In this document: one piece after another, positions 21,517-45,070 of the stretch
Layout: the number at the start of each line of letters is the position of its first letter
Numbering within the stretch: the stretch's first letter is position 1
NCBI GenBank assembly: GCA_045542115.1
Contig: JAZQKK010000019.1
Coordinates: 133,362-197,361, forward strand
Direction of reading: 5' to 3'
From: Eubacteriales bacterium
Lineage (GTDB): Bacteria; Bacillota; Clostridia; Oscillospirales; UBA644
Length of the DNA stretch: 64,000 bases
Notes under the pieces: model-generated
Database searches by the model: none
What the model was told of the DNA's origin: nothing
Seen by the model: only the letters and a program-made list of their open reading frames with translations
Translations under genes and position numbers: made by a program

Positions 21517-21525
21517 AAAACAGGT

Positions 21526-21558
21526 ACGCCCCCTTGTAAAAGCAAGGGGGCGTTTGTT
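21526..21558 (+). terminator. rho-independent terminator after GH127
   Basis: ACGCCCCCTTG-TAAAAG-CAAGGGGGCGT followed by TTGTTG. Confidence 0.7.
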
Positions 21559-21737
21559 GATACCGTCGGGGCATTGCCTGTTTAATTCGTTCAAAGGCAG
21601 CTTTTGCGTTGACCGGCATCCCTGCGGTACGCTTCTTTCGGGAAAAGGAACGAATTTAACAACGTAATACGACGCGCCCCACGGGCGGGTTTTCCTTGGG
21701 CGCATTTACGAAACGGATAAAAATTTTGCCGTGTAAG

Positions 21738-21766
21738 TTGACACGACCTGTTTTTTGCGGTATAAT
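21738..21766 (+). promoter_or_regulatory. consensus sigma-A promoter of the GH116-LacI unit
   Basis: TTGACA (21738-21743), 17 nt spacer, TATAAT (21761-21766). Confidence 0.7.
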
Positions 21767-21798
21767 AGAAAAAAAGATTTCGGAAAGGAATCCGTGGT

Positions 21799-25392: not shown

Positions 25393-27885
25393 TTAAGAAT
25401 TATCCGCCTTGGCAAAGGTCAGCGTCGCGGTGGCGACCTTGTCAGTCCGGCTTTCGCCGTTCTTGGGCGTTCCGTTAACGGTCAGCACAAAATCCACGAA
25501 ATCCGCATCAGCAACGGCCTTTTCTTCTGCCGTTTCCAAAATTTCTTCCGCCGATTCGGGGGTAACGGTCAAGTCGTCATCCGCGTCGGCATCGACAACG
25601 GTCAGGGTGGCTTTCACGCCAACGTTGGAATGGTTGACCACCGTTACCTTCAACTGATTGTCCTTCCATTCTGCCGGACGGAAGCCTTCAAAGGTGTGGT
25701 CTTGCGGTTTCCAAGTCCCTTCGCTTCCGCCGTCATAATCAAAGGAAACGTCATCGTTCTCCCAAGCCACGTCCAGGGAATACACTGGGTCGGAAGGAAG
25801 CCGACCTTGGTAGTTCACGGTAAGATCCCTGTTCTCCGAGGGAAGATTAAGACCGGCAAGTTGATTACTCATATCCCGAACTACCGTGTAAGAGGCGATT
25901 TCGTATACGTCGGGATCCCCGGATTTTTCGCCCGTATTGTAATAGCGGAACGTGATGTGGTCCTCATAGAAATCAATTTTCAGGAACTGAACGATTAACG
26001 GCTCGGCCACCGCCAATCCACCGCTCTGATATTGGTTATTGTAATACCCCATAGATCCCATATGGCAGGAGAGGGCGCCGTTTGTCGTCCAGGAATTGTC
26101 CTCATTTTGCGTTTCACTGCCGAAGATGGGACGCACCAATTCGGACGAGGCGTACCAAGCATATTCACTGTCACTCCCGTGAACGTGCCCGTAGCAATAA
26201 AGCACGTTGGGATATTGTGCCAGGGTCTCCTGAAGAAGATTCGTTGCATCCAACCCCGCGCTAACGGGATAATGGCATTGCAGAATCACGGTTTTATCCT
26301 GTCCGATCTCTTCCAATTGCGCTGCAACCCATTCCGCCTGGCTGACGTAAAGGGTGCTGACATCCCCGGTAGGCTGATAGGGAGTATTGACGCTGATAAA
26401 TTCCATTCCGTTCAACGAATACCGATAGCAGAGCAGTTCGTTGAATTTGGAGTCGGGATTACGCAAATACGCATCGAAGTCTCCTACGTGCTCAAGGAGA
26501 TACGAATCCCAATCCCCGGAATACACGGTTCCGCCGGCAGTATTTCCGGGCTCGGAATCGTGATTGCCGGTGATGGGAAGAACCACGGAATCCGTACTGC
26601 CCTGCAGAAGGGTTGCATAAACCGTATCCATAGAATTGCGGAGATTCTCGTTCGTCCATTCCGCATTCCAATCGTTATTGCTGACGATATCGCCGCCAAC
26701 AAGGATCACGTTTGCCCCACCTAAAGTATCCCTCAGATAATTCACGGCGTTCACCGTTCCCTGACGGATGGGAGAGTTCCAGGACTGAATCCCGTAGTCC
26801 ACGTGCAAATCGGAGAAACAAGCCACGGAATACAGAGGCGTCTGTCCGGCGTTGTCGTATTCCGCTTCATTCTGTTGCAGGGTGTACAAGGTAAATTCAT
26901 TGCTGCTCGGGAGCGTGCCGGAAACCCAACCGGAGCCCGTAGTCAGAACGTTGGAAAACCGCAGATAATACGTAGTTTCGTCAATGACCGTATATATCTT
27001 CATCTTTCTTCCGGAAAGGGTAACGTTCAGATTCTGGGGGGTGTCCGAAAGAGTCGCCGCCGTAGCGGAAAGATTCAGATATTTTCCTGCGGCATCGGAA
27101 TAGAAAACGTAAGTCCCGTCACCGTTTTCGGTGATTCGCCACAGGCTGTCGGTTGCCTTCTCCAAGGTCTTGGGACGGGTTGCGTATTGCAAACCGGCTT
27201 CCTTCGGTGCGGCAACGACGCAAGTGTCCATCGTAACGCCGGCCGCATCCCTCACCGAAGCCCGCCCGAGAGCGTACTGCTCCCCGGAAACGAACTGGCG
27301 CATAGGACGGACGAACGTATCCGAATCCGAATCTTGAATGGTCTGCAGCCCGAATTCCGTGCTGCTCTCAGTGGCCCCAACGACCCAACGACCGTGAACA
27401 GTTGCAGTTCCGCGGGTCATACGCAGATAGTAATTCGTACCTTCCACGGTAGTGTAAATTTTAATTTTCCCATCGGAGATGGTGGCATTCAACGCCTGAG
27501 GCGTATCGGAAAGAGAGGCTTCCGTCGAACTCATATTCAGATACTTTCCGGCGTAATCCGACCAAAGGGTAACGGTGTTGGTCGTCGTTGCGTAGGAAAT
27601 CCGCCACAAGCATTTTTCCCCTGCAGCGACCGTCGCGGGAGGCATAGCAAGAGCCATCCCTCCTTGATAAGTCTCGGCGGAAACACAGTACGTGGTGCTT
27701 GCGCTCACGAGGTTTCCGTTGAAATACATTCTCGTCCCGTTCATAGTCAGGACGTATTCCTCTCCCGGCACGAAACCGTCGGCGGCGGCAAATCCCGTCT
27801 CGGCGGCAACCGAAGAGAGATTCAATCCCGCCAGCAGAGAAAGACAAAGAACTGCAGCGAGGAAGCAAGCTATCGCTTTACGCAT
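25393..27885 (-). CDS. secreted multidomain protein: duplicated lectin-like N-terminal modules + calcineurin-like metallophosphoesterase + shared C-terminal domain
   Basis: Start moved to the ATG at 27885 (RBS GAAGGAGAA; signal peptide MRKAIACFLAAVLCLSLLAGLNLSSVAAE). The internal duplicate CLWRISY...GKYLNMS...YYLRM matches SLWRITE...GKYLNLS...YYLRF. Phosphoesterase motifs: FSDLHVD, GGDIVSNND, TGNHDSE, LQCHYP, YGHVHG. Confidence 0.8.
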   Translation of the reverse strand: MRKAIACFLAAVLCLSLLAGLNLSSVAAETGFAAADGFVPGEEYVLTMNGTRMYFNGNLVSASTTYCVSAETYQGGMALAMPPATVAAGEKCLWRISYATTTNTVTLWSDYAGKYLNMSSTEASLSDTPQALNATISDGKIKIYTTVEGTNYYLRMTRGTATVHGRWVVGATESSTEFGLQTIQDSDSDTFVRPMRQFVSGEQYALGRASVRDAAGVTMDTCVVAAPKEAGLQYATRPKTLEKATDSLWRITENGDGTYVFYSDAAGKYLNLSATAATLSDTPQNLNVTLSGRKMKIYTVIDETTYYLRFSNVLTTGSGWVSGTLPSSNEFTLYTLQQNEAEYDNAGQTPLYSVACFSDLHVDYGIQSWNSPIRQGTVNAVNYLRDTLGGANVILVGGDIVSNNDWNAEWTNENLRNSMDTVYATLLQGSTDSVVLPITGNHDSEPGNTAGGTVYSGDWDSYLLEHVGDFDAYLRNPDSKFNELLCYRYSLNGMEFISVNTPYQPTGDVSTLYVSQAEWVAAQLEEIGQDKTVILQCHYPVSAGLDATNLLQETLAQYPNVLYCYGHVHGSDSEYAWYASSELVRPIFGSETQNEDNSWTTNGALSCHMGSMGYYNNQYQSGGLAVAEPLIVQFLKIDFYEDHITFRYYNTGEKSGDPDVYEIASYTVVRDMSNQLAGLNLPSENRDLTVNYQGRLPSDPVYSLDVAWENDDVSFDYDGGSEGTWKPQDHTFEGFRPAEWKDNQLKVTVVNHSNVGVKATLTVVDADADDDLTVTPESAEEILETAEEKAVADADFVDFVLTVNGTPKNGESRTDKVATATLTFAKADNS
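25427..25766. repeat. copy 1 of a ~340-nt near-identical repeat (3' end of the metallophosphoesterase gene)
   Basis: Aligns base for base with 28011-28350 at a constant offset of 2584 nt. I count about 7 mismatches by eye. Confidence 0.9.
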
Positions 27886-27982
27886 TTGAAACCATTCTCC
27901 TTCTACGTGTCTTTTGAATTGTATTACAGTTCGTATACAATATCGTAGCCTGAATGTAAAATTCCCATTCAAGCCCGACTTC

Positions 27983-29851
27983 TTATTCCGCTTTCGCGAA
28001 AGAGAGCGTAGCGGTGGCGACCGTGTCGGTCCGGCTTTCGCCGTTCTTGGGCGTTCCGTTAACGGTCAGCACAAAATCCACGAAATCCGCATCGGCAACG
28101 GCCTTTTCTTCTGCCGTTTCCAAAATTTCTTCCGCCGATTCGGGGGTAACGGTCAAGTCGTCATCCGCGTCGGCATCGACCACGGTCAGGGTGGCTTTCA
28201 CGCCAACGTTGGAATGGTTGACCACCGTTACCTTCAACTGATTGTCCTTCCATTCTGCCGGACGGAAGCCTTCAAAGGTGTGGTCTTGCGGATTCCAGGT
28301 CCCTTCGCTTCCACCGTCATAATCAAAGGAAACGTCATCGTTCTCCCAAGTGATATCCAGATAATAGGTGGGTTCGGCGGGGATTCTGTCACTGTAGGTC
28401 ACCGTCAAATCCGATTGGGAAATTTGCAGATAGTCCTTCACCAATTCAAACCGGACCCCATTCAAATAGGCACCACCGGAACAAGACAAGGTGACAGGAA
28501 CGTTTTCTCCGGCGGGAAGGTAGATTTCCTCTGCCGAAACAAAGAGCCAAGCGTCGCCGTAAAGTCCCTTATCGGAAGTAGATTTGTAATAGGTGGTTCT
28601 GGGACGTTGCGTGTCAAAAAGGGCCACTTCTCTTTCAGCGACGGAAAGGGAGAAGGGTTTGGCGCTATTATCCGAATTGGAAGAATAAGGAATCAGCACC
28701 TTATACACGCCGGCGGTGGGAATATCCACGTTCCACGTCACAGTCGCAAGCTGATTTCCGGCGTTAAAGCACGCTCCGTCAAAGGCGGAAAGGGTGGTGT
28801 CGTCCTGTACCAAAGAATACTCGGCTCCGGAAGCGGTATACGTATCGGCGGAAGTCAGCCATTCGGAGGCGGGCCAAAGTTGCAAATCAGCCAACATCGG
28901 AGCCCCGTTCGTGCCGTTCATCCCCAAAACCAAGGTGTTGCTTCCAGGAACCAACGTCACTTTAACGATATAATAACTCCACGTAATATCCGTGGTATCG
29001 GTTTTGTCGCCCCAGTAGTTGGTATTGCGTTTGGTGGTGACGGTCTGAGCCGCCCCGTTTACCGTTACGGTCAACATCCGCGCCGTAGAATTCCCGGTGG
29101 CATTGTTATAGTTGATGGCCAGATAATAATCGCCGGGGCGGTCTACGTCAAAGGTGTAGGTAACGGTGCGGCCGTCCCCATTGTTCCCGAAACTCCAATA
29201 AGTCACGTCGTGGGCCGTTCCCATTTTAAACCCTTGGCTCACCGCCGTTTCCGACGTGTCGGAAGGGGTTCCGTTCTCAGGCAGCAGGGTAATTGCGGTT
29301 TGCGCCGTGCCAACGGCAAAATCCTGGATGAGGGAGGCCGTCAGGTCGGAGAGCATCGGACCTTTCGCGCTTCCGTTCAAGGAAAACTTCACAACGTTTT
29401 CCCCTTCCGTAAAGGTCACGGGCACTCTTTGATAGGTCCAGACCCCCGCGACATTATCCCCCCACTTGGTAGAGTTTTTCTGGAAGGCTACTTCGGTAGC
29501 GGCGCCGCCGTTGACCGAAATATTGTAATATCGCACACTGGAATCCGCACTGTTGTAAAGAACCCACAGGTCATAGTTCCCGGCGGTTTTTACGTCAAAT
29601 GCGTAGGAAAACGCATCCCCGCTGGTGTGGTTCCCGGGGTTCACGTATTCCACCCCCGTCGGCCCCGTCCCCCGGTTGCCGGCATCGCTCATCTGGGCGT
29701 GAAGGATGGTGGCATCCATTGCACGGCTGACAAGGACGGAGGAGTCCGCATCAGCGGAACCGTCCGCAGCGGCAGACGAGAAGGGAATTGCGGCAAGCAG
29801 GCTCGTTAAGAGTGCAAGGGTCAGAATAATTGCCAAAATCGACTTTTTCAT
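27983..29851 (-). CDS. secreted protein made of three CBM6/35-like carbohydrate-binding modules + shared C-terminal domain
   Basis: Signal peptide MKKSILAIILTLALLTSLLAAIPFSSAAA. Three modules of ~140 aa with the pattern Y.F.V...G.Y.L...Y.......R...V.VNG......W....V.L..G.N...L. No catalytic motif. Confidence 0.75.
   Translation of the reverse strand: MKKSILAIILTLALLTSLLAAIPFSSAAADGSADADSSVLVSRAMDATILHAQMSDAGNRGTGPTGVEYVNPGNHTSGDAFSYAFDVKTAGNYDLWVLYNSADSSVRYYNISVNGGAATEVAFQKNSTKWGDNVAGVWTYQRVPVTFTEGENVVKFSLNGSAKGPMLSDLTASLIQDFAVGTAQTAITLLPENGTPSDTSETAVSQGFKMGTAHDVTYWSFGNNGDGRTVTYTFDVDRPGDYYLAINYNNATGNSTARMLTVTVNGAAQTVTTKRNTNYWGDKTDTTDITWSYYIVKVTLVPGSNTLVLGMNGTNGAPMLADLQLWPASEWLTSADTYTASGAEYSLVQDDTTLSAFDGACFNAGNQLATVTWNVDIPTAGVYKVLIPYSSNSDNSAKPFSLSVAEREVALFDTQRPRTTYYKSTSDKGLYGDAWLFVSAEEIYLPAGENVPVTLSCSGGAYLNGVRFELVKDYLQISQSDLTVTYSDRIPAEPTYYLDITWENDDVSFDYDGGSEGTWNPQDHTFEGFRPAEWKDNQLKVTVVNHSNVGVKATLTVVDADADDDLTVTPESAEEILETAEEKAVADADFVDFVLTVNGTPKNGESRTDTVATATLSFAKAE
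28011..28350. repeat. copy 2 of the ~340-nt near-identical repeat (3' end of the CBM-only gene)
   Basis: See 25427-25766. Flanking sequence is related only at protein level. Confidence 0.9.
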
Positions 29852-29869
29852 TTTATTCCATCTCCTTTG

Positions 29870-32800
29870 TTAATTTACAGAATCTATGGCTAATGTCAGC
29901 GTTCCCACGGGAACGGTAGTCATTGCTTGGGTAGGTGCGGGGGCAGACAGATAGACGGTGTAGCAAACTTCGTCTCCCTCCCACAGTTCCGTCGGGGCGT
30001 TTTCTTCTCCGTTGGCAAGCAACGTAACGGAATAATCGGGATACTCACCCTTGGGGGCATATCGCAACGCGACAGCAAGGTCGGTCTCGCCCACGTTTTT
30101 CACCGAAATGGAAGCGTCGGTGATTTGGTCTCCGGTACGGTGGACCCATTCGCTCTTTTCGTATTGATGGGTCTGCCCATTCCAACTTCCCTTTTCATAG
30201 GTGAAATTCATATGAGTCCAAGTCACGTCAAAGTCGCTGACCGCGGGGGCTTCTTCGACCAATTCCAGCCGCACGCCGCTCAGGTAAGCACCGCCCGACC
30301 AGGACAGGGCGACGGGAAGATTTTCCCCTGCCTTCAGGGAAAATTCTTCGGTGGTGACGAATTTCCACGCCACACCGTAGGGATTCACGCCGCTGCCGGA
30401 ACCGGTACCGGTCCGTTTTCCGGTGGTAGCCACGGTGGTTCCGTCCACCACAAGGTTGATGGGGACATCACTTCCGCCGCTGGAATAGGGAATCACGGCA
30501 CGGTAGGTCCCACTGACGGGAATCGTCACGTTCCAGGTCAACGTACCCAGAGAGTTGCCCGTATTGTAGGCGGTTCCGTCAAACGCGGAGGAAGAAGAAA
30601 GCGAAACCGCGTTTCCTCCGGCCGCCAGGTCATCTGCCCCGGTGTGGAATTCGCTTTCCGGCCACAGGTACAAGCCGGAAACAGCGGGAGACGCCTCTCC
30701 CTTCCGGGCAAGGAACAGTTCGTTGTTCCCTTCCTGCAAGGTGACCTTGACCACAAAATAGGAATTGGTTGCAAACCAAGACGTGGCATTCGCCGCGCAA
30801 GCAATCCGTTGCGCCTCTCCGTCATTGACCGAAAGGTGTAAGTAGCGGGTGCCGGTCGTGTTGTATCCCACGGCCACGTAATAGTCCCCGGCGTAGGGAG
30901 CGTTCACCGAGAAGACGAACGAGCCGTCTTTGTTGTTGTGGTCGGCAAACAGTCCGTCTCCGGATTGAATCTTGTACTCCTGGCTGACCGTCGATTCCCA
31001 CCGGACGCCGTCGGCCAAGGAGTTTACTCCGTCCACGGTCTTGATTGCGGGATAGTAGGTGGTATGTTCGACGTTGCCGATTTCCGAGGGAATAACGGTA
31101 ATGGAATGGGTGGCGGAAACGGTGTCAAACTGTCCGTCCCCTTCCAGGGTGGCTTTCAGAACCACGGTACCGGGCTGACCGGTGAGGGTCACGCGGCCAC
31201 GGACGGCATCCACCGTCGCCGGACCGGAGACCACCGAATAGGTAATCTGACCGGAAGATTGTCCCCCTTCTGCCGTTACGGCGAAGGGCTTGGAATCTAC
31301 CGTCTTTTTGGTGGGCGTGGTGTCGGAAAATTGAAATTCACTTTCAGGAATATCGTGAAAATACCAATACGCACGGTTGGTTACCAGGTTGCCGGGCAAG
31401 TAATTGCTTTCCTCGTCCATAAACAAGGTCCCCTCTTCCGAAATCGCCAAAACCATTCCGGAATCCACGTGTTTCAGATAATCGAAATGCTCGGTTTCGG
31501 TCACACGGGTCCACAGGGCATTTCTGCCGGTTTCTCCGGCGGCCATCCAGGCGGTTTGTCCGTCGGAAACCAACAGTTTTCCGGACTTGCGGTTGACCAC
31601 GTAAATCAACCCTTCCGGTGTGGTGACCAGATTCCAGGAGGCGTCGGAAGAAACGGTATCGGTTCCCATAATAACGGGAGCGAGCGCCGTAGCGGACAGA
31701 CGGGTATTGTCAACGCAAGAGGCGTCAACCACCGTGGGAGTGACGGGAGACACTTCCACCGGAATCAAGGTCAGCCCCCCAATTAGGGTTCCGCCGGTGG
31801 GAACGTGGATGACAACTTCATTGGTTCCGGGTGCCAAATAGGCTTCCGTCTCTTCATATCCCCAGGTCGCCCCGTAGTTGGGGGAAACCTTCTTCCCGGT
31901 AAAGAGGGCCTGGGTCGTGCCGTTGAGTTCCAGAGAAACTTCCCGGAGAGACCCGTTGGGGGTGGAGAAGAAGAAGGCAATGCGATAGATTCCGGCAGGT
32001 TGGTCGGAAATGTTCCAGACCACGGAACCGCCGGTGCTTCCTACGTCTATCCCCTTGCCATCGAAGGAGGAGGGGTAATCTTTTATCTTATCGTCTCCGT
32101 CGGAGTTGGGAAGGACTGCTTCCGGGGCGGTGTAAACGTCGTCCACCGGCCAGAACACCAATTCTTTCAGGTTCGCCCCCACTGCGGTGCCGGAATCAAA
32201 GGTGATTTTGTTTTCGCCGGCCTGCAAGGGCACTTGAATGATTCGATAGGACCAGAACGTTCCCCAGGCTCCGTTGGATAAGAAGGAATACTCTCCGAGT
32301 TTGGTGCCGTTGACCGAAACGGCCATCGTCTTGGCACATTCCCCGTACACGTTATCACCGTTGGCATTTTTGGACGTGGTGCCGTTGTTGTAGTTGACGG
32401 CCATATAATAGTTGCCGGCTTCGTTTGCGGTGAAGGTATATTCCGCCGTTCCGGAGGTGCCGTTAAAGTCCACGTACTTGTTTACGTAGTCGTAATCTTT
32501 GAGCACCAATCCGTCGGAAATGGTAACGTCGTTGGCGGAAACGATGTTCGACCCAAGGGAGTTGCTTCCCGTTCCTGGCCAGAACATTCCCTCATCGGTG
32601 CCGAAGATTTCTTCCATTACGAACATCGGAACGTCCTCTCCGGCCACGTAAACGGCGGCACGAACGGTGGTCTCCAATTCCACCTCAAACGCGCCCGTAT
32701 ATTTATTGGAAGATTTGTCGGGAACCGTACCGTCGGTGGTATAGTAGATTTCAAAGGTGTCTTTGGCGGGATTTCCCCGAAGAGCCAGCTGCTGAACGTC

Positions 32801-35365
32801 AATGGAGACCAAATTCGAGGTCAATTGCCGTTTTTCGCCCACAATCGAGGCAGCGGTAAACAGAATGTCGCCGGCATCCTGGGTGGGCGCGACGAAAACT
32901 TTGTTCAAGCCCATAAAGGCGTTGCGGTTGTAATTCACGTGGCTTTCCGTGTCGGTGGGAGAGCCGTTGTCGGCGGCCTTGACGTAAGCGGGGCCGGAGA
33001 CGTAATAGTAGGCGCGGTTTTCCCCGTAGGGATAGAAATTACCGTCTTTATCCACGGTAGTAACCGTCACTTGTCCTACCCAGGAGGGGTCTTGGGGAAG
33101 TTCTTCCCCGGTGGTATTTTCCAGAACGATGCCGGAAGGCGCCGAGGCAGTGACGTAAGTATCTTTCAAAACTTCCTTCCCTTCGGCGTCGTAACCGATG
33201 GCGGTCAGCGTGCCGGGGGTGTAAGGAACGTTGAAATCAAACTGGATTTCCAGATGTTCCCGTTGGTCTATCGGCCCCCGGGTCTGGGTTCCAATCAGTT
33301 CTCCGTTCAGATAGAGAGCCACCGTATCGCAATTGGAATAGACCCAAACGGGGATGACCGTTCCCTCTTCCATTGTGGGATGGGTCCAGGAGGGCAAAAT
33401 GTGAAGCACCGGCTCCTCGGTCCACATACTCTGATAGAGATAGAACATACTCTTCTCAAACAGGGCGGTATCCACAGCGCCGCTATGGAACATCCGGTAG
33501 GGCCAGCCGCCGAGAACGTAGTTGGCTTCCCCTAAGTAGTCGAATCCGGTCCAGCGGAATTCCCCGATTCGCCAATCTTCGTCTCTCGTCCGGGTCCAAT
33601 GCTCCCGAACCGAGACCTGACTGGTGGCATTGTCGTAGTCGGAAGGCCAGATGCGAGCCGCCACGGCGGAAGAAGACCAGTCGTATTTAAAAATTTCTTT
33701 TTCGGTCAGGTGGGGAATGGTGTTGCCGGAACCGGTTTCAGAAATCCGACCCCGGAACCAAGTCTGCGTCCGGTAAACGCCCCGGACCGCGTGGGTATGG
33801 GGGGCTTCGGTGGCAATGAGGGGCAATGTGGAAATGGGTTGGGTAAAGGTGGCAGGTTCGCTCTGTCCGTTTGCACCGGGAATATCAACGCCCGTGTGAA
33901 TGGCACTGCCGGTGGTGGGACGGGTGGTATCAAACTGATGAATAAAATCGCTGATGCCGGTATTGTCGTGGGAGCTTCCGGTTTCGTTCCCGATGGACCA
34001 GACCACCACGGAGGGATGGTTCCGGTCTCTCCGGACCCAATATTCGAAGTCCCGTTGCCAATATTCTTTAAACCAGCGAGTTGCGTAGTCGCCGGCAACC
34101 TTCCCCTTCTCCCCTTCGGAGAATTCATCCAGAACCATCATACCCATTTCGTTACAGAGTTGATAGAAGATGGGGGGGCAGGCGTTGTGGGCGGTGCGGA
34201 TGCAGTTGACTCCCATATTCTTCATCATCTGAATCTTATAGCGAATCATATTGTCCGACTGGGCGGCACCTACGGCGCCCAGAGCCCAGTGATTGGCAAC
34301 CCCCTTCAACTCGGTGTTGACCCCATTGAGATAAAGGCCGTTGACGTCGTAGGAAATGTGCCGGAAGCCAAACTCGGTAAAATAATCATCCAAAACCGTA
34401 TCCCCGAGAAGGATTTCGGTGTGTACGTAATACAAATTGGGAGAATCCACGCTCCACAACAGGGGATTGTCCACGTGAGCGGTCTGGGTGACGGTGAAAT
34501 CGCCCCCCGCCGCAACGGTCACGGGATTCCCGGTCACCTGAGCAACCTGAGAATCGTCAGATTTTTGATAAAGGGTGGAGCGGACGGAAACGTCCACGTC
34601 CGACGCCCCTTCGTTTTTCACCAGCGTTTCCAGGTTGACGTCCCCGTTGGGGGCTCCCTTAAATTCGCCGGGGGTGGTCACGTAGGTTCCGTTTTCCGCA
34701 ATATGTACGTCTTCCGTGGAGACGACCCAGACGTGGCTGTAAATCCCCGAGCCGGTGTACCAACGGGCGGAGGGCAACACGGAGTTGTCCACCTTCACGG
34801 CGACTGTAACGGAATCTTTGCCCTGGACCTGTTGGGTAATATCACAGGAAAAAGAAATCCAACCGTATTCCTGGCCGCCCACCTCTTCCCCGTCCACGTA
34901 GACGGTGCTGTTGGTATAGACCCCGTCAAAGGCCAGAGAGACCTTTCGTCCGTCCCGCCATTCTGCGGGGATGGAGATGGTTTTCCGGTACCAACCGATG
35001 CCGCCGGGCAGATAGCCACCGGAACCGCCGGACGCGTGGGCCTTGTCGTATTCCCCTTCAATGCCCCAGTCGTGGGGAAGGTTCAACGTCCGCCAGGCCG
35101 AATCGTCAAAGTCTTTGGCGGCCGCACCGGAAACGTCTGCTTGCATAAATTTCCAGTTCAGGTCAATCTTTGCCCGATACCGCTGTGCGGTCTTATCCAC
35201 GTTTTCAAAAGTTTCAATATATTCAAAATCATTTTGCGTTTGCTGTTTCATCGTTTTAACTTCTGCACCTTTCGTTATCATCTGTGAAATCTGTGGGAAA
35301 ATTCCACTTCCTAATAGGGCGATACACAAGACCATTGCGGTGCATAGCCAAACCCTTTTCCCCAT
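29870..35365 (-). CDS. giant secreted glycoside hydrolase family 2 enzyme with ricin-like, Big_2-like and CBM-like modules and the shared C-terminal domain
   Basis: Start moved to the ATG at 35365 (RBS AAGGAG; signal MGKRVWLCTAMVLCIALLG). GH2 motifs: NLPHDWGIEG, acid/base WSIGNETG, nucleophile region LIATEAPHTHA. Later modules: ricin-type (KLLVSDGQTAWMAA...WYFH) and Big_2-like (ITYSVVSGPATVDAVRGRVTLTG). Confidence 0.85.
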   Translation of the reverse strand: MGKRVWLCTAMVLCIALLGSGIFPQISQMITKGAEVKTMKQQTQNDFEYIETFENVDKTAQRYRAKIDLNWKFMQADVSGAAAKDFDDSAWRTLNLPHDWGIEGEYDKAHASGGSGGYLPGGIGWYRKTISIPAEWRDGRKVSLAFDGVYTNSTVYVDGEEVGGQEYGWISFSCDITQQVQGKDSVTVAVKVDNSVLPSARWYTGSGIYSHVWVVSTEDVHIAENGTYVTTPGEFKGAPNGDVNLETLVKNEGASDVDVSVRSTLYQKSDDSQVAQVTGNPVTVAAGGDFTVTQTAHVDNPLLWSVDSPNLYYVHTEILLGDTVLDDYFTEFGFRHISYDVNGLYLNGVNTELKGVANHWALGAVGAAQSDNMIRYKIQMMKNMGVNCIRTAHNACPPIFYQLCNEMGMMVLDEFSEGEKGKVAGDYATRWFKEYWQRDFEYWVRRDRNHPSVVVWSIGNETGSSHDNTGISDFIHQFDTTRPTTGSAIHTGVDIPGANGQSEPATFTQPISTLPLIATEAPHTHAVRGVYRTQTWFRGRISETGSGNTIPHLTEKEIFKYDWSSSAVAARIWPSDYDNATSQVSVREHWTRTRDEDWRIGEFRWTGFDYLGEANYVLGGWPYRMFHSGAVDTALFEKSMFYLYQSMWTEEPVLHILPSWTHPTMEEGTVIPVWVYSNCDTVALYLNGELIGTQTRGPIDQREHLEIQFDFNVPYTPGTLTAIGYDAEGKEVLKDTYVTASAPSGIVLENTTGEELPQDPSWVGQVTVTTVDKDGNFYPYGENRAYYYVSGPAYVKAADNGSPTDTESHVNYNRNAFMGLNKVFVAPTQDAGDILFTAASIVGEKRQLTSNLVSIDVQQLALRGNPAKDTFEIYYTTDGTVPDKSSNKYTGAFEVELETTVRAAVYVAGEDVPMFVMEEIFGTDEGMFWPGTGSNSLGSNIVSANDVTISDGLVLKDYDYVNKYVDFNGTSGTAEYTFTANEAGNYYMAVNYNNGTTSKNANGDNVYGECAKTMAVSVNGTKLGEYSFLSNGAWGTFWSYRIIQVPLQAGENKITFDSGTAVGANLKELVFWPVDDVYTAPEAVLPNSDGDDKIKDYPSSFDGKGIDVGSTGGSVVWNISDQPAGIYRIAFFFSTPNGSLREVSLELNGTTQALFTGKKVSPNYGATWGYEETEAYLAPGTNEVVIHVPTGGTLIGGLTLIPVEVSPVTPTVVDASCVDNTRLSATALAPVIMGTDTVSSDASWNLVTTPEGLIYVVNRKSGKLLVSDGQTAWMAAGETGRNALWTRVTETEHFDYLKHVDSGMVLAISEEGTLFMDEESNYLPGNLVTNRAYWYFHDIPESEFQFSDTTPTKKTVDSKPFAVTAEGGQSSGQITYSVVSGPATVDAVRGRVTLTGQPGTVVLKATLEGDGQFDTVSATHSITVIPSEIGNVEHTTYYPAIKTVDGVNSLADGVRWESTVSQEYKIQSGDGLFADHNNKDGSFVFSVNAPYAGDYYVAVGYNTTGTRYLHLSVNDGEAQRIACAANATSWFATNSYFVVKVTLQEGNNELFLARKGEASPAVSGLYLWPESEFHTGADDLAAGGNAVSLSSSSAFDGTAYNTGNSLGTLTWNVTIPVSGTYRAVIPYSSGGSDVPINLVVDGTTVATTGKRTGTGSGSGVNPYGVAWKFVTTEEFSLKAGENLPVALSWSGGAYLSGVRLELVEEAPAVSDFDVTWTHMNFTYEKGSWNGQTHQYEKSEWVHRTGDQITDASISVKNVGETDLAVALRYAPKGEYPDYSVTLLANGEENAPTELWEGDEVCYTVYLSAPAPTQAMTTVPVGTLTLAIDSVN

Positions 35366-35427
35366 TCCGCGGTACTCCTTTTTTGAAAATTTATCCAAAT
35401 AGGTTTTAACTTTTTAGGATATACTCC

Positions 35428-35456
35428 TTGACAATACCATTATACTATGTTATAAT
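35428..35456 (+). promoter_or_regulatory. consensus sigma-A promoter of the AraC gene at 35525
   Basis: TTGACA (35428-35433), 17 nt spacer, TATAAT (35451-35456). Confidence 0.7.
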
Positions 35457-35467
35457 CAAAATGTAAA
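35439..35467 (-). promoter_or_regulatory. divergent promoter of the GH2 operon, interdigitated with the AraC promoter
   Basis: Minus strand: TTTACA (35467-35462), 17 nt spacer, TATAAT (35444-35439). Each -10 lies inside the other promoter's spacer. Confidence 0.6.
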
Positions 35468-35472
35468 TTGAA

Positions 35473-35521
35473 AATATGGCATAAATTTTTAGAAATATGA
35501 AACTGTTTTTAAGGAATATGA
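35473..35521 (+). promoter_or_regulatory. three AATATG(A/G) direct repeats phased exactly 21 bp apart in the AraC 5' UTR
   Basis: Repeat starts at 35473, 35494 and 35515. The last overlaps the RBS (AAGGAATATGAAAGATG). Confidence 0.35.
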
Positions 35522-35524
35522 AAG

Positions 35525-36340
35525 ATGAATGTAATTGACTATGCCGAACAATTCCGAAAAACCAACGCCCCCTTTGCCGTGGACCGTACCAATCTGTCGG
35601 TTGCCTCCCGAACCACGCCGCCCATCGTTCGCGCGTTCGGATGCTGCTCAGTGGAATACGTCATTCGGGGGAAGGGAACGGTTACCGAAAACAATACGAC
35701 CTTTCACGTCAAGGCGGGGGACGTCTTTATTTTGCACAAAGGGGCGTACCATAACTATTTCCCCGACCCGGACGACCCCTGGGTCCGTATCTGGGTGCAA
35801 ATCTCAGGGCCTTCCAGCGAAGAAATTCTCCGGGCGTACGGCCTTTCCCAAGTAAATCATATTCCCAATTTCAATCTGGAAGAAGATTTGTTTAAGATTC
35901 GTTCGGTCATTCAAAACGATACCGACCTTACAACGGTGGACCGGGAAGGGCCCCGGCTTTGCCTGAAGCTGATGCAAAAGATTCACGAAGAACTTCGCCG
36001 CCGGGAACTGGTGGAGCATACCCCTTCCCTTCCGAAGCTGGTTCGGGAGCGAATCGACAATCTCCCCAACGGATACATCACCTTAGACCAACTGTCCGAA
36101 GAGTTTCATTTTTCCAAACAATATATTATCCGCCGGTTCAAAGACCGTTACGGCATCACGCCCCACGAATACATTCTCAATCGGAGAACGGGGCTGGCCC
36201 AGTCTTTGCTGAAGCGAACCGACCTTTCGGTGAAACAGATTTCAGACCAGTTGCAGTTTTGCGATATCGCCTATTTTACCGATTTCTTTCACCGCCGCAC
36301 CGGAATGACGCCTTTGGAATACCGCAAGAAGTACCGGTGA
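35525..36340 (+). CDS. AraC-family transcriptional regulator (cupin + HTH)
   Basis: Cupin-like N-terminal domain (FHVKAGDVFILHKGAYHNY) and a C-terminal double HTH ending GMTPLEYRKKYR. Confidence 0.85.
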   Translation: MNVIDYAEQFRKTNAPFAVDRTNLSVASRTTPPIVRAFGCCSVEYVIRGKGTVTENNTTFHVKAGDVFILHKGAYHNYFPDPDDPWVRIWVQISGPSSEEILRAYGLSQVNHIPNFNLEEDLFKIRSVIQNDTDLTTVDREGPRLCLKLMQKIHEELRRRELVEHTPSLPKLVRERIDNLPNGYITLDQLSEEFHFSKQYIIRRFKDRYGITPHEYILNRRTGLAQSLLKRTDLSVKQISDQLQFCDIAYFTDFFHRRTGMTPLEYRKKYR

Positions 36341-36350
36341 AAACGACATA

Positions 36351-36406
36351 AAAATTCCCCCGAAGATTTGATACGGTTGCACAAAATCTTCGGGGGATTG
36401 TTTTTT
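36351..36406. terminator. bidirectional terminator between the convergent AraC gene and the 1789-aa gene
   Basis: TCCCCCGAAGATTT ... AAATCTTCGGGGGA, a 14-bp stem flanked by A4 and T6 runs. Confidence 0.75.
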
Positions 36407-36411
36407 ATAAT

Positions 36412-39400
36412 TTATTGGTCGGCAGATTCGTCCGCAGCGGACAACGCGATGGTCACCGTAGCGACCTTGTCAATCGCCTCGGTGGGAGTCCCGTCGGCAG
36501 TGAAGGTCACGCTTTCCGTGGGCGCGTCATTCACGGGCGTTCCTTCGGCGGTAGGCAGAGTCAGGGCAGACTTATCAGCCGAAACGGTAACTTTATCGCT
36601 GAAATTCTGCACGCCGATGGCAACGTTCACGGCTCCGTTGGAGTGGTTGACCACGGTGACGTTGATGGTTTTCTTCACCCATTTTCCTTCTTCGCCCCCT
36701 TCATAGGTATGGCTGGAAGGCGTCCAGACGCCTTGGCTTCCGGCGTCGTAGTCAAAGGCAAAATCGTCCCCGTCCCAGGAAATATCTAACAAGTATACCT
36801 TGTCGGCCGGCTGGCGGTCGTTGTAGATGACCGTCAAATCCTCGGATTCGCTCTTGATGGTCTCGCCGCCGACAGGTTCTTTGCCCAAATCTTCCAGGGC
36901 AATGACGTTCGCCCAGGTGTCGGAATCGGCGTTCTTCCATTGAATGTGGGTATCGGTGACTTGTAGGTCGACGTCCGCGTTGGCATCGCCGGTCAGGTCT
37001 TCCACGGTCATCAAATCCTTCCATTCGCCGTATCCTTCCACGTATTGAATCATCCGCGTAGTGGAGCGCATCACCGTGTTTTCTTTGATGCGGACCCGGA
37101 CCTCATCGTTCAGCGCGTTGGGGATAAAGAAATTGGCATTGGCAACGATTTCCCCAGTGAAGGTGTTGTACCCGGACAGAAGCACCCCGTTTTCGTAGAC
37201 CGAAACCAGGTATCCCTCGTAATTCTGGCCGGAAGGAACGTGGACGGCGGTATAGCCGAGAGGTTCGTTGACCGCGGTATAAGGTTGTTTCCAGGTCAGA
37301 CTCGCATCGGCTTCCAAAGCCTCGGCCTTCCACTTCCGGGTGACGGAGACACTTTCGTTATCGCTGAACGCCCGGTGGGAGTGCCCGGCGAAATGAATGA
37401 CGTTGGGGTATTTTTTCAGAAGGTTGTACAACAGGTCGGAGGAGTTCCAATCGGGAACGAATCCATCCCGGGGACCGGACCATTCATTGAAGGCAATGTA
37501 GCCGGTACCGGAGAAGATCTCCTTCTTGTCGTTTCCGTCCGGTTTATTGTAAATCGATGCAAAACCCGATTCGATGGTGTAGTAGTGGAACATCAAATAG
37601 ACGTTGCCGTACACGTCGTTGGTGTTGTAGTAATTTTCCAAAACGCCTTCCAGCCATTCCAACTGCGTGGGGTCCAGATGCTGAGAGGTGTTGGTTTTTG
37701 CGTCGTCCTTGTAGAAATTGGAATTATACACACCGATGCCCATATAAACGAACAGATCGTCGCCGTACTGAACGGTATAGTCGTAGTCGGGATTTTTCTC
37801 GGAAACGGTGACTTTGTATTCTCCGTTGGGGCCGGTGTAGTTGGGATTGGCGTAGGTGGTGCCGCCCAAAGCGTTTTTCAGATTTTCAAGCGCCTGTTCG
37901 GGGGTAAGCCCGTGGGCGGTGTCGATGTTCCATTCCAGAGCGTCGTGGTTCCCGGCGGAAACGAAGACCGGCATCGTCCAGCCGCCTTCGGTGTAGACCC
38001 GCTGGAATTCTGTATAGGCTCCGGCGGCGCCGTTGTTGGTAAAGTCCCCGGTGACCACGGTAAAGGTGGCGTTGGCGGATTCAAACAGGTTCATTGCCGT
38101 AGCGAAGGCAACCGATTGCGCCCCGTTTTTGGTGGCGGTAAAATGCGTATCCGACAAAACCCCGTAGGTATATTTCAAATTCCCAAGGTCGGTCTTCCGG
38201 TCGGAGGGCAATTCGTAACCACTTACGGGAACGCCGTCTTGCGCAAACCACAGATGGGTCGCGCCGGCGGGGATGCCCACCCGGTCAGCAAAGGTGTAAC
38301 TGAGGACCTTACCGCTGATGTTCAGGTCGTCCACTTCTGCAATGGGAGTATATCCCGTAAGCAGTCCGTCCGCAGTTCCCCAACACAGAGAATAGTTTCC
38401 GGAAACGTAATTCTCCCTCAAAGTAACGGTGACCGTTCCTTCGGCGCTGCCGGGGAGGTTCTGCCGGAAGGCATACGTTATTTCGGGAAGGGGTTCAATG
38501 GTCAAAGTATAGTTCTTATCTCCGATTTCGGCGTGGGAAAGGGCCAGGGACCAAGAACCGGGTTCGGAGGCGGTAGCCTTTTTCACCAGCGTCAAATTCG
38601 CGGTATAATCTTCCATCAACGTATCCAGCTTCGAATTCAGATACTCCTGGGTCATATTGTTGGAGGCGGGGATGCTGTTCAGCAGAGTTTCCAAGGCTTC
38701 CAGGTCGGCGGCGGGGTCGATGGCCACGGAATGGTCCACAAAGGTTTTCAGCATCGGATAGTAATAGGTATTCCCGGAAGAAGCCTTGACGGTCCAGGCG
38801 GAGTTTTCTCCGGAGGTAAGTCCGGCAAACAGTTGGGCGTTCTTCGCAGAGAAGCGTTTTACCGACGTAACGTTGGCAAGGTCGGAAGGACAGTGTCCGG
38901 CGAAGATACCTTCAAGGTGGTTCAGCGTTCCGGAGATAGCGTAACTGTTGGTCAGCACGTTTCCGTCCGCAAAGCCTTCGGAGGAATTGCCTACCCGGGG
39001 AACGGCCACGATATTACCCACGGAAGAAACGTTGCTTCCCGCCGTTCCGGCTTTCAGGGAATAAATCGGCCCCACGTTCAGACAGTTGCGAACGGTCATA
39101 TCGTTGTCTTTCAAGTCGCCAACGATACCGGCGGCCGCCGCATAGCAGGAGCCGGTGCCGTGATAGGAAGAAACGACGGTGGCAGCGTTGAAACAATCTT
39201 CCACGACGGTCCCGATATGGTCGGGCGTACGGCCGATCACGCCGCCAACGCTGGTCTGCCGCTTGGCGGAACCGCTGATATAACCGGAAAGAACCGCTAC
39301 GTTTTTCAGAGACAGCGTCGTGTCTTTCAGCGCGTATCCGCTGACGGCACCCACGTTACAGTAGTCATAATTTGCTTGCACGTTGATGCAAATATTTTCA

Positions 39401-41781
39401 AAGGCCAGGTCTTTGATCTCCACCTGCCCGGAGAGTAATTCAAACAAGCCGAAGTTATACGTTCCGCTGTCTCCGCAAACTTTGGGAGAATCCTTCGTCC
39501 CGATAAACAGACCGGAAATCACTTTGCCGTTTCCGTCAAACCGTCCGGAGAATTGCCCTTCGATGGGAACCCATTCTTTATCGGACAGGTCGAGGTTGTT
39601 GATCAGTTTGTAGTTTCCGTTCAGGGGATATTCGGCAATGGTGCCAATCTTCCGCAGTTGTTCGGCGGTTTCAATGTAAATCAGCTCCACAGGAACAGAG
39701 TCCTCCACAAAGGTTTTCAGCATCGGATAGTAATAGGTGCTTATCCCCTCTTGGGTGGTGGATGCCTTTACGGTCCAGAGGGAATTTTCTCCGGCCGTAA
39801 GACCGGCGAAGGACGCGGGGTCGTCCACGTCAAACAAATCCACCACGTTGGTATGGTCCGTATCCCACTGATAGATGCTGGAATAGGTCCCGCTGTGGGA
39901 CAGCGTTCCGGAAATGCCGTAGTTATTGTTAAAGACAAATCCGTCTACCATCGCAGTCCCGCCGGAAACGGTCATTCCCTGCAAGGTAACGATATGACCG
40001 GGCATACAGTACGCGGTCTTGGACGTAGAGGTAGAAGCAGTAGAAATCTTGCCCACGTTCAAGCAATTTTCCACGGTATTTCCTGCCGCATTTTTGGGAC
40101 GGCCGATGATACCGGCAGCGATGGCGTAAGAACCGTTATCGCTTCGCTTGGTGGAAACAGAAAGATTTGCGGCGTTAAAACAGTTGCGGATAACGTATCC
40201 GGCGTTTCCGGTAAATCCACCGGCAATCCCCCCGACCCCGACCTGGTGGTCGTTGTTCAGAGAGCGAATCGTCCCGGTAACGGCGACGTTTTCAATCAAC
40301 GAAGTTCCTTTGATAAAGCCGGTGACTGCACCGATGGCAAAGTCTGCGGTATATTTTGTTTCGCCTACCGTCCAGTTTTTAGCGCAAACGTTAAAGTCTA
40401 CGTCTTTGAAGAAAACGTTTCGGACCGTTCCGTCCAAAAGAATTCCAAAGAATCCCCAGAAACTGTCGGCGGCATTTTCCACGGGAGCCGCTTCGGTCCC
40501 GCTGTGGAGGTTGGCAATCGTGTGCCCGTTTCCGTCAAAGACACCAGAAAATGCGCGGTTGTAATCGAAGGTGGGAAGGTTTACTCCCAAAGGCGTCCAT
40601 TCCACGTCGGCAAAATCCAAGTCGTTCATCAGACGGTAGTACACGCCCGCCGCCAACGGATACATTCCATTCGTTCCGATTTTCCGCAATTCTTCCTCGG
40701 TTTCAATGGAAATGACCGTTCCTTGCGTTCCCACGGGAACGGCGTAGGCGGGATTTAAGGTAGCGGGAAGGGGATAATGACCGTCTTTTAACGTCCAGCC
40801 CGCGGTAAAGGACGCCGCATATTTGGCTGCGTCATCTATATTCTGGGCAGAAAGAAGGGTAACGCTGTTTTTATCCGCTTCATAATAGATGGCATCGTCC
40901 GCCGTATACGAAACGCAACCTTCCAACCCGTAGCAGTTGACGATCTGAGAACTTCCGGGCAGGGAGGTAATGGGAGAAGAACTCGTGGAGGCCCGGCCGG
41001 CAATGGACCCACAGCTGCTGATATTCGTCCCACTTTGAAGGGCTACTTCACTGACGATCTGCCCCACGTTGATGCAATTGGAAATGGTGGTACCCTGATT
41101 CAAAAGATACCCGACCATCCCGCCGATGGAGAGATAGCGATTTACATCTCCGGACGTGGTGGTCGCCCCGGAAACGGTCGCCCCGTTATAACAGTTTTTA
41201 ATCAGAACGGTGGAATTGGCTTTGTGTTGGCACATCCCAACAAAGCCGCCCACACGGTTTTGGCGTTCCACACAATACAAAGAACCGGAGAGAACGGCAA
41301 CGTTCTCAATTACGACCGTTTGCGTTCCGTTGTCCGGTCTCAAATATCCGACAATCGTACCCACGCCGGACTGACTTCCCCGTCCGGGGGCTCCGTTGTA
41401 GTATACGTTTTCAAAGATAACGTTTTTTACGGTAATGCTGTCATAAACTTCGGAAAACAAACCCCAGTTGGGTTGGGTCGTGGGCGTCGTGGCAGTCCCG
41501 GCATACATCCCAGAAATGACGTGTCCCTGCCCGTCGAACGTCCCGGCAAAGTTTTCAATGGCATCCCACTCTCCGTCGGACAGGTCAATATCCGCGGTAA
41601 GTACATAGTTCCCGTCCAAGGGGTAATAGACTTCGTCCGTACCGATCTTGCGCAGATCTTCTGCGGTGCTGATTTCGATGATGTCTTCCCCGATGGAAAT
41701 CATCCCCATCAATCCGATGCACAGACCGCATCCCACGCTGAAAGCGAGGACGAAGGCGAGAAGTTTTTGCCAACGTTTCAT
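36412..41781 (-). CDS. giant secreted/anchored protein: three ~330-aa GLUG-like beta-helix modules + calcineurin-like metallophosphoesterase + shared C-terminal domain
   Basis: N-terminal signal/anchor MKRWQKLLAFVLAFSVGCGLCIGLMG. Each of three modules opens with I.I.TAE(D/E/Q)LRKIGT...Y.L..D(I/L)DL...(E)W.P(I/L)..F.G.FDG(Q/N)G(H/K).I and holds repeated GG(F/I/M/V)(V/A/I)G motifs. Phosphoesterase motifs: LSDTHFT, TGDFTNNG, AGNHDA, MFHYY, AGHSHR. Confidence 0.8.
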   Translation of the reverse strand: MKRWQKLLAFVLAFSVGCGLCIGLMGMISIGEDIIEISTAEDLRKIGTDEVYYPLDGNYVLTADIDLSDGEWDAIENFAGTFDGQGHVISGMYAGTATTPTTQPNWGLFSEVYDSITVKNVIFENVYYNGAPGRGSQSGVGTIVGYLRPDNGTQTVVIENVAVLSGSLYCVERQNRVGGFVGMCQHKANSTVLIKNCYNGATVSGATTTSGDVNRYLSIGGMVGYLLNQGTTISNCINVGQIVSEVALQSGTNISSCGSIAGRASTSSSPITSLPGSSQIVNCYGLEGCVSYTADDAIYYEADKNSVTLLSAQNIDDAAKYAASFTAGWTLKDGHYPLPATLNPAYAVPVGTQGTVISIETEEELRKIGTNGMYPLAAGVYYRLMNDLDFADVEWTPLGVNLPTFDYNRAFSGVFDGNGHTIANLHSGTEAAPVENAADSFWGFFGILLDGTVRNVFFKDVDFNVCAKNWTVGETKYTADFAIGAVTGFIKGTSLIENVAVTGTIRSLNNDHQVGVGGIAGGFTGNAGYVIRNCFNAANLSVSTKRSDNGSYAIAAGIIGRPKNAAGNTVENCLNVGKISTASTSTSKTAYCMPGHIVTLQGMTVSGGTAMVDGFVFNNNYGISGTLSHSGTYSSIYQWDTDHTNVVDLFDVDDPASFAGLTAGENSLWTVKASTTQEGISTYYYPMLKTFVEDSVPVELIYIETAEQLRKIGTIAEYPLNGNYKLINNLDLSDKEWVPIEGQFSGRFDGNGKVISGLFIGTKDSPKVCGDSGTYNFGLFELLSGQVEIKDLAFENICINVQANYDYCNVGAVSGYALKDTTLSLKNVAVLSGYISGSAKRQTSVGGVIGRTPDHIGTVVEDCFNAATVVSSYHGTGSCYAAAAGIVGDLKDNDMTVRNCLNVGPIYSLKAGTAGSNVSSVGNIVAVPRVGNSSEGFADGNVLTNSYAISGTLNHLEGIFAGHCPSDLANVTSVKRFSAKNAQLFAGLTSGENSAWTVKASSGNTYYYPMLKTFVDHSVAIDPAADLEALETLLNSIPASNNMTQEYLNSKLDTLMEDYTANLTLVKKATASEPGSWSLALSHAEIGDKNYTLTIEPLPEITYAFRQNLPGSAEGTVTVTLRENYVSGNYSLCWGTADGLLTGYTPIAEVDDLNISGKVLSYTFADRVGIPAGATHLWFAQDGVPVSGYELPSDRKTDLGNLKYTYGVLSDTHFTATKNGAQSVAFATAMNLFESANATFTVVTGDFTNNGAAGAYTEFQRVYTEGGWTMPVFVSAGNHDALEWNIDTAHGLTPEQALENLKNALGGTTYANPNYTGPNGEYKVTVSEKNPDYDYTVQYGDDLFVYMGIGVYNSNFYKDDAKTNTSQHLDPTQLEWLEGVLENYYNTNDVYGNVYLMFHYYTIESGFASIYNKPDGNDKKEIFSGTGYIAFNEWSGPRDGFVPDWNSSDLLYNLLKKYPNVIHFAGHSHRAFSDNESVSVTRKWKAEALEADASLTWKQPYTAVNEPLGYTAVHVPSGQNYEGYLVSVYENGVLLSGYNTFTGEIVANANFFIPNALNDEVRVRIKENTVMRSTTRMIQYVEGYGEWKDLMTVEDLTGDANADVDLQVTDTHIQWKNADSDTWANVIALEDLGKEPVGGETIKSESEDLTVIYNDRQPADKVYLLDISWDGDDFAFDYDAGSQGVWTPSSHTYEGGEEGKWVKKTINVTVVNHSNGAVNVAIGVQNFSDKVTVSADKSALTLPTAEGTPVNDAPTESVTFTADGTPTEAIDKVATVTIALSAADESADQ

Positions 41782-45037: not shown

Positions 45038-45070
45038 AGCCAATCTCCTTTTTTCCATATTTTACGATCT

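Follow-up and report, generated by a model that had tools for sequence, protein, structure and literature searches.

Four secreted proteins encoded close to one another in a 64,000-nucleotide stretch of DNA from a gut-type Eubacteriales bacterium of the class Clostridia (GenBank assembly GCA_045542115.1, contig JAZQKK010000019.1, positions 133,362 to 197,361 of the forward strand; this whole stretch is called the window, and coordinates are counted from its first letter) end in one and the same domain, an unannotated beta-sandwich of about 125-147 residues, and the sharing of this tail is real and far beyond chance. Outside the window the domain is mostly found as a small secreted protein in its own right, and in relatives it belongs to a conserved cluster of genes that includes candidate membrane-tethered and wall-anchored partners. 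We give about an even chance to the reading that the tail is a docking or assembly module, which would place the four proteins on a cell-surface structure whose subunit domain it is. The genes, which we call A to D, are as follows.

Gene A, 25393..27885, minus strand: 830 residues; secreted; ricin-type lectin repeats, a calcineurin-like phosphoesterase and the C-terminal domain.
Gene B, 27983..29851, minus strand: 622 residues; secreted; modules like carbohydrate-binding module (CBM) 35 and Golvesin_C (Pfam) and the C-terminal domain.
Gene C, 29870..35365, minus strand: 1831 residues; secreted glycoside hydrolase family 2 (GH2) glycosidase with extra CBM-like modules and the C-terminal domain.
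Gene D, 36412..41781, minus strand: 1789 residues; secreted; three long N-terminal repeats, a calcineurin-like phosphoesterase (Pfam Metallophos) and the C-terminal domain.

A check of the open reading frames (ORFs) found all four on the minus strand as the first-pass annotation had given them, each starting with a signal-peptide-like segment. Pfam matches in A were Metallophos (6e-11) and RicinB_lectin_2, and C carries a complete GH2 set (Glyco_hydro_2_N, Glyco_hydro_2, Glyco_hydro_2_C, DUF4982 and Glyco_hydro2_C5) together with CBM_35. The sequences of A, B and D are identical to P0107, P0108 and P0109, respectively, in the protein collection that was searched, and the proteins are singletons in the protein-cluster look-up.

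The four tails are listed below with their scores against a profile hidden Markov model (HMM) built from 106 homologues, none of them from the window; the small and large types and the N-terminal strand are described further on.

Tail of A, 25396..25842, minus strand: residues 682-830; assigned to the small type; N-terminal strand DLTVNY at 25810-25827; 122 bits.
Tail of B, 27986..28420, minus strand: residues 478-622; assigned to the small type; N-terminal strand DLTVTY at 28394-28411; 122 bits.
Tail of C, 29873..30256, minus strand: residues 1704-1831; assigned to the large type; no N-terminal strand; 38 bits.
Tail of D, 36415..36855, minus strand: residues 1643-1789; assigned to the small type; N-terminal strand DLTVIY at 36823-36840; 116 bits.

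These scores uphold the proposal that A-D end in one homologous domain. The weakest of them, that of C, spans model positions 50-178 and corresponds to an E value of 6e-11 over all six-frame ORFs of the window, and the same scan revealed no fifth copy there. In pairwise comparison the A and B tails are 87-90% identical as protein (tblastn E 1e-78) and either is about 40% identical to that of D (E 1e-29 to 1e-33), whereas the C tail matches the others marginally (E 0.02-0.4); because it also found no relatives when used as a single-sequence query, its membership was established with profiles. The tails of A and B are 94.7% identical as DNA over 380 bp (25403-25782 versus 27987-28366), while the remainder of the two genes is unrelated, which points to a recent exchange, duplication or gene conversion of the module alone.

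The annotation had been unable to assign the domain to a family, and our searches agree: Pfam had no match to the four tails at E<=10 and no consistent family among 110 family members at E<=1, NCBIfam (sorting domains included) and PHROGs had no match to the tails, and a profile search of PDB sequences with the tail domain gave nothing. Also as annotated, Pfam detects no SLH, dockerin, CWB2 or choline-binding domain in whole proteins A-D (E<=0.01) or in the tails (E<=10), and no C-terminal xPxTG sortase signal is present in A-D, the sole LPITG lying internally at residue 436 of A. The WxL profile PF13731 matched neither the tails (E<=10) nor any of the 110 family members (E<=1), the W.L motif is absent from all four 170-residue tails, and the Pfam family Peptidase_M73/TasA matched neither tails nor family members. 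A phage origin of the domain found no support, a scan of viral contigs (IMG/VR) with P0012 and the PHROGs scan both being empty.

An AlphaFold2 model computed from a 110-sequence alignment is an all-beta sandwich with a mean predicted local distance difference test score (pLDDT) of 87 and a core above 90. When this model was compared with the PDB by Foldseek nothing fell below E 1e-3, and the matches were weak throughout, with template modelling (TM) scores of 0.3-0.5. They comprised ASH/MSP/PapD-like immunoglobulin (Ig)-like folds, the chaperone-usher pilins CfaB, FimG, the PapG pilin domain, Caf1 and CsuA/B (for which the TM scores were just 0.3-0.4), the archaeal Sulfolobus 0406 thread subunit, and, among generic matches, GH115 accessory domains and a porphyran-binding CBM. 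The subunits of F-ENA endospore appendages are not known to carry signal peptides. These appendages, taken up as a candidate from the donor-strand literature (PMC12357932), were rejected, no F-ENA structure being among the best 50 PDB matches listed.

A word-indexed search had yielded 106 relatives, nearly all of 167-200 residues and consisting of a signal peptide and the domain alone. An exhaustive HMMER search over 1.84 billion representatives enlarged the family to 1377 clusters at 50% identity (E<=1e-3), of which 357 reach E<=1e-10 and 19 reach E<=1e-30. We classified the architecture of the best 150 of the 1377 representatives with the HMM built outside the window: 94 are stand-alone secreted proteins of about 175 residues, 30 carry the domain at the extreme C-terminus, 20 carry it N-terminally, directly after the signal peptide and followed by leucine-rich repeat (LRR), beta-helix or CBM-like parts, three carry it internally, and one, P0243, has it in tandem. 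The strictly C-terminal position described by the annotation thus fails outside the window. By a simple heuristic 136 of the 150 have a signal peptide, and most others seem to be truncated gene calls. The annotation had named a mainly cytoplasmic occurrence, or a confident match to a generic internal Ig-like or CBM family without positional bias, as grounds for abandoning its proposal; the family is in fact not cytoplasmic and gave no such match. The passengers of the C-terminal class (Metallophos, CBM35, GDSL esterases and Cthe_2159 beta-helix) are extracellular enzyme or CBM types.

Several representatives deserve separate mention. P0139 falls in the multiple-copy class only because its signal-peptide region was matched separately, and P0133 (2218 residues, 17 matched stretches) was rejected as an internal tandem Ig repeat, since it contains a different repeat that matches in part, with no stretch qualifying. 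In the protein P0001 of locus L009 (440-4470), an SGNH-like part with the tail, the gene overlaps the end of an upstream gene of 1107 residues with F5/8-type-C and CE2_N matches, and the two are probably one frameshifted or mis-called large esterase gene ending in a small-type domain. Secreted ubiquitin-like proteins are unusual in bacteria. P0002, P0004 and P0005 (245-256 residues) nevertheless consist of a signal peptide, a eukaryote-like ubiquitin domain (PF00240, E 3.7e-22) and the family domain; P0165 and P0190 (452-461 residues) likewise join a ubiquitin domain to the family domain, with a beta-helix-like part next in P0165, and P0190 is probably built in the same way, judged by its similar length and domain position only.

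Within the family two subtypes can be told apart. In 295 unique small proteins an amphipathic strand precedes the core, from which it is separated by a variable 8-residue linker. The strand, with the pattern I(41%)-D(60%)-V(90%)-x-A/G(82%)-x-Y(80%), is as conserved as the core, and the invariant or near-invariant residues of the family include three Trp, a Phe, two Tyr and a His. In the AlphaFold2 model the strand is unpacked (pLDDT 62-73 versus a core above 90), and in the A tail the unpacked part takes in the first ~23 residues. The C-terminal domains of a class of large secreted proteins from the gene cluster described below, which we call LARGE, begin after the strand position and have V-x-N-x-G instead of VVNHSN. 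Separate HMMs for the two subtypes score the A tail at 125 (SMALL) versus 40 (LARGE) bits and the D tail at 130 versus 43, A, B and D all giving 120-130 versus about 40, whereas the C tail, with ISVKNVG in place of VVNHSN, is scored at 71 bits by LARGE and 54 by SMALL. On these profile scores the tails of A, B and D are of the small type and that of the GH2 protein C is of the large type. The annotation had called the C copy divergent, but it belongs to a distinct large subtype and is not merely diverged.

Covariation was examined as mutual information with average product correction (MI-APC). In a total of ~15,000 column pairs, couplings of the strand with core columns 65, 75, 126 and 166-170 fall at ranks 18-60, and other top pairs are plausible strand ladders. 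Both subtypes also occur in one chain in P0243 (2466 residues), in which residues ~1919-2466 hold a large-type copy, a small-type copy with N-terminal strand and an LRR domain in succession; it looks like a fusion of a LARGE protein of the cluster with a protein of the N-terminal class, and its arrangement hints that the two subtypes may be neighbours in an assembled structure.

To place the small proteins in their genomic setting, six frames of 79 metagenome loci, picked by similarity to one small protein and including near-duplicates, were scanned with HMMs for the domain and for three recurrent neighbours, X, Y and Z. X lies directly upstream of the small protein in 59 of 61 evaluable loci, and farther upstream, beyond X, a LARGE protein (a secreted protein ending in a large-type domain) is found in 43 of 50. 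Of the downstream neighbours, Y is present in 36 of 46 loci and Z in 23 of 32. The number of small proteins is one or two, and the commonest order is LARGE-X-small-small-Y-Z. The repeated gene module was seen in L001, L003 and L006 and the cluster core in L001, L006, L008 (a Eubacteriales metagenome-assembled genome), L011, L091 and L092; divergent lineages retain this core, with LARGE (721 residues)-X-small in L091 and a protein of >2476 residues with X-small-small-Y in L092. This giant LARGE protein (L092, 1-7432) has a faint Glug-motif match. The hosts of the cluster were assigned to Clostridia/Eubacteriales, and from the Clostridia assignment they are presumably single-membraned. The annotation had suggested looking for co-occurrence with a secretion or processing gene. 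A conserved cluster with X, Y and Z did emerge, but no transporter or peptidase gene was conserved in the clusters examined, and no usher or pore family appeared in the Pfam lists and scans of the example loci, the other loci having been scanned only with the domain, X, Y and Z profiles.

X (about 180 residues) and Y (about 160 residues, with a hydrophobic N-terminal segment) are paralogues whose HMMs cross-hit. In the model of X (pLDDT 85) a linker connects an N-terminal helix (residues 3-36) with a single Ig-like sandwich, and by homology Y presumably has the same build, a membrane helix and one Ig-like domain. The X family comprises 991 clusters at 90% identity, without annotation; neither X nor Y matched DUF916 or DUF3324, and X has no sequence match. 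In structure, the best Foldseek match of the X model in the PDB was PapD (E 8.5e-4), followed by SfaE, SafB, DraB, CsuC, FimC and YadV (to about 1e-2), and several chaperone-usher pilins are on the same list; the scores are weak, the list unusually uniform. Z (about 220 residues) has a signal peptide, an N-terminal strand patterned as in the small proteins (IGVFAKAVYT, IDVFAKAVYT), an unrelated middle, and a C-terminus formed by LPQTG, PPETG, SPKTG, FPKTG or NPQTG, then a hydrophobic segment and a basic tail. Because of this C-terminal arrangement Z is classed as a predicted xPxTG sortase substrate, and some Z variants have a membrane anchor only.

Two further settings of these genes were observed. 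In L001 (2072-4074) and L006 (2025-4069) the cluster adjoins an Agr-like pair made up of a HATPase_c_5 histidine kinase and a LytTR response regulator, which suggests peptide- or density-dependent control. In L003, L004 and L005, on contigs of 16-67 kb, neither LARGE nor Z accompanies the X-small-Y trio, whose neighbours are NrdD, a RecD-like helicase, a YqaJ-like exonuclease and many small genes that have no annotation; this setting suggests a phage or plasmid, for which the IMG/VR and PHROGs scans gave no support.

A link between the cluster and the window comes from the nearest stand-alone relatives of the window tails, P0123 and the small protein of L011 (41-43% identity). The latter belongs to an X-small-Y-Z cluster and immediately follows a degenerate gene in which a tail resembling those of A and B is still recognisable at the end.

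Taken together, the genomic associations of the domain point to cell-surface attachment or assembly. Given that it is mostly stand-alone, or N-terminal too, we regard it as a modular protein-protein assembly or retention domain and not as a C-terminal sorting signal. Strand complementation is possibly the mode of contact, and the most likely one in our judgement. In such a mechanism subunits would join through the N-terminal strand, as in the donor-strand complementation of pili. Small-type proteins, the enzymes A, B and D included, would be built in as subunits, and LARGE-type proteins, as acceptors only, would occupy the distal end. Z would link the assembly to peptidoglycan, while X and Y, tethered to the membrane, would serve as assembly factors or as chaperones resembling PapD. 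Enzymes would in this way be displayed beside the cell, an outcome comparable to that of dockerin-cohesin or WxL systems. Put at its most specific, the proposal is of a pilus-like fibre of gut Clostridia made by donor-strand complementation and decorated, in the organism of the window, with glycoside hydrolase, CBM and phosphoesterase proteins that would have gained the subunit domain. In this fibre small subunits polymerise, a strand-less LARGE adhesin or enzyme caps the tip, X and Y serve as chaperones, and the strand of Z, set in the last subunit, fixes the fibre to peptidoglycan; this detailed picture we offer tentatively, as a possibility with the balance against it.

The likeness to chaperone-usher pili that underlies this proposal has several parts. 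There, too, small subunits consist of an N-terminal amphipathic strand and an Ig-like domain; LARGE resembles FimH and PapG in joining a functional N-terminal part to a strand-less C-terminal subunit-like domain; and small subunits and Z carry the strand but LARGE does not, while the Ig-like accessory X is best matched by PapD-family chaperones. Unlike those systems, the example clusters showed no usher or pore gene in their Pfam lists and scans, X is single-domain and membrane-tethered, anchoring is apparently by way of a sortase substrate, and the structural likeness is weak (E about 1e-3). A donor-strand principle may also be common to TasA/CalY fibres, archaeal threads (whose Sulfolobus subunit was noted above) and bundling pili, all of them donor-strand fibres from outside the Proteobacteria; the present family differs from TasA/CalY in having no sequence match, no SipW-type peptidase in its clusters, and accessory proteins X, Y and Z of its own.

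The WxL systems offer the closest parallel in gene content. A WxL cluster combines a small WxL protein, a large one with WxL at its C-terminus and an Ig-like partner anchored in the membrane, and in many cases an LPxTG protein as well; the membrane partner is predicted to place a strand beside the N-terminus of WxL (PMC9772566, PMC10599100). The logic of the WxL/Csc clusters of Lactobacillales, Listeria and Enterococcus is the same as that of the clusters in the relatives: one small protein is the domain and nothing else, a large protein of several domains has it at the end, an Ig-like partner is fixed in the membrane, and a further small protein has a sortase anchor. In both systems, moreover, the domain has small- and large-type variants, and rearrangement or the insertion of a partner strand is linked to an N-terminal strand (PMC9772566, PMC10599100). 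The differences are nevertheless substantial. No homology is detectable (no PF13731, DUF916 or DUF3324 match and no Trp-x-Leu motif); X, and presumably Y, has a single Ig domain behind an N-terminal anchor helix, whereas WxLIP has the order DUF916-DUF3324-transmembrane segment, with a C-terminal anchor; and the lineage here is Clostridia, not Bacilli, with the domain also N-terminal and on glycoside hydrolases and phosphoesterases. By analogy, dockerin-cohesin cellulosomes may be compared as well, since there too one common terminal module on unrelated enzymes (here GH2, CBM35, GDSL esterases and phosphoesterases) would serve recruitment to a cell-bound scaffold. Here, though, there is no dockerin or cohesin fold or Pfam match, the module is a beta-sandwich also found as a free protein, and no scaffoldin with repeated receptor modules was seen.

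Several observations weigh against the docking or assembly reading, strand complementation included. X, Y, Z and a stand-alone small gene are all absent from the 64-kb window, as judged by profile scans. The covariation suggests that the strand contacts a core domain, and this signal cannot tell contacts in cis from contacts in trans. The structural similarities are all weak (Foldseek E about 1e-3, TM 0.3-0.5), and Ig-like folds cross-match easily. Finally, the co-occurrence counts, drawn from loci chosen for their resemblance to one protein, overstate the independence of the loci.

Three other explanations were weighed. The domain might itself attach to the wall by direct non-covalent binding to peptidoglycan or to a secondary wall polymer, in the way proposed for WxL, SLH and CWB2; the tails would then keep the enzymes on the wall, with X, Y and Z merely stabilising or organising the bound proteins and no protein polymer being formed. 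The make-up of the cluster closely parallels that of WxL clusters, and peptidoglycan binding is reported for the WxL domain (PMC9772566, PMC10599100); the near-invariant residues are rich in aromatics, as on many glycan-binding surfaces, and the domain stands at protein termini. Yet in sequence it is unrelated to WxL, SLH, CWB2 or any CBM family, it lacks the WxL motifs, and direct binding leaves unexplained both why Z shares the strand only and why large-type copies lack it. We regard this reading as unlikely. We find it likewise unlikely, and slightly more so, that the domain is instead a generic Ig-like spacer or a substrate-binding CBM-like module with no anchoring role, brought to four neighbours by local domain shuffling. 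It is, to be sure, a plain beta-sandwich whose weak matches include the GH115 accessory domains and the porphyran-binding CBM; A and B did exchange the module recently, to judge from their 94.7% DNA identity, and A-D are rich in other CBM-like modules. Most members, however, are stand-alone and locked in a conserved operon with membrane- and wall-anchored partners, the domain in fusions stands at the extreme terminus and not between other domains, and the sole tandem-repeat match, in P0133, is a different Ig repeat.

The annotation had taken the C-terminal position as the hallmark of an anchoring or secretion-sorting domain, and the two halves of that proposal fare differently. Surface attachment or assembly is where the genomic associations point, whereas a C-terminal secretion or sorting signal, read by a dedicated export or processing machine in the style of the type IX secretion system C-terminal domain or of exosortase and sortase, appears highly improbable. 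Such a signal would agree with the position in all four window proteins and in the 30 C-terminal representatives of the top 150; it is disfavoured by the 94 stand-alone and 20 N-terminal ones, by the Sec-type signal peptides that the proteins already carry, by the want of a conserved transporter or peptidase gene in the clusters and by the failure to match any NCBIfam sorting domain.

C, B and A probably form one operon, because the gaps between them are only 18 bp (C/B) and 97 bp (B/A). The neighbouring genes encode GH127, GH116 and GH36 enzymes, a LacI regulator and two AraC regulators:

AraC-family regulator, 35525..36340, plus strand: between the C-B-A row and D, divergent from C; Pfam AraC_binding and HTH_18.
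GH127 (beta-L-arabinofuranosidase-like), GH116 and GH36 (alpha-galactosidase) genes, 19690-24321 and 42869-45058: flanking A-D, with LacI and AraC regulators.

The neighbourhood fits a glycan-utilisation island, and the flanking genes would suit plant or host glycans. The N-terminal ~1000 residues of D contain three long repeats with the pattern I-x-T-A-E-x-L-R-K-I-G ... F-D-G-x-G-H, and this part may be adhesin-like, resembling the LARGE proteins of the cluster. Elsewhere in the window, 45146-46555 and 50414-51943 encode a corrinoid activase of the RACo type and an AraC regulator that has B12-binding domains; the same AraC-B12 architecture adjoins URO-D-type methyltransferases in L011 (15644-20540), and these corrinoid genes point to a methyl-corrinoid pathway and possibly related organisms. 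Antisense ORFs of 380-800 residues lie over A-D (27914-29809, 33599-35287, 37045-39438 and 26803-27948, all on the plus strand). Their low-complexity Gly/Arg/Pro-rich translations and their complete overlap with well-supported genes suggest that they are not genes.

Gut Clostridia degrade complex glycans, and how they retain large secreted enzymes at the surface is poorly known outside cellulosome producers. Many of the contig titles read 'human gut metagenome', and some 'fermentation metagenome'. The domain and its partner genes are abundant, with at least 1377 domain clusters at 50% identity and 991 X clusters at 90%. None of the cluster components is covered by Pfam, NCBIfam or PHROGs, no related solved structure was found for them by sequence, and full-text literature searches found no description of the domain or the cluster. 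WxL already provides an example of a Gram-positive surface cluster whose several proteins have a terminal domain in common; what is new here is a non-homologous variant in another bacterial class, with accessory proteins of its own and enzymes as passengers. If the tail does recruit enzymes to a dedicated structure, it would be a new and predictable marker of surface-displayed enzymes in such genomes, and would also open to testing a possible fibre that is complemented by strands and assembled with the aid of chaperones, in a bacterium lacking an outer membrane. An enzyme-decorated pilus, if true, would constitute a third route to the surface display of enzymes, beside cellulosomes and direct wall anchoring.

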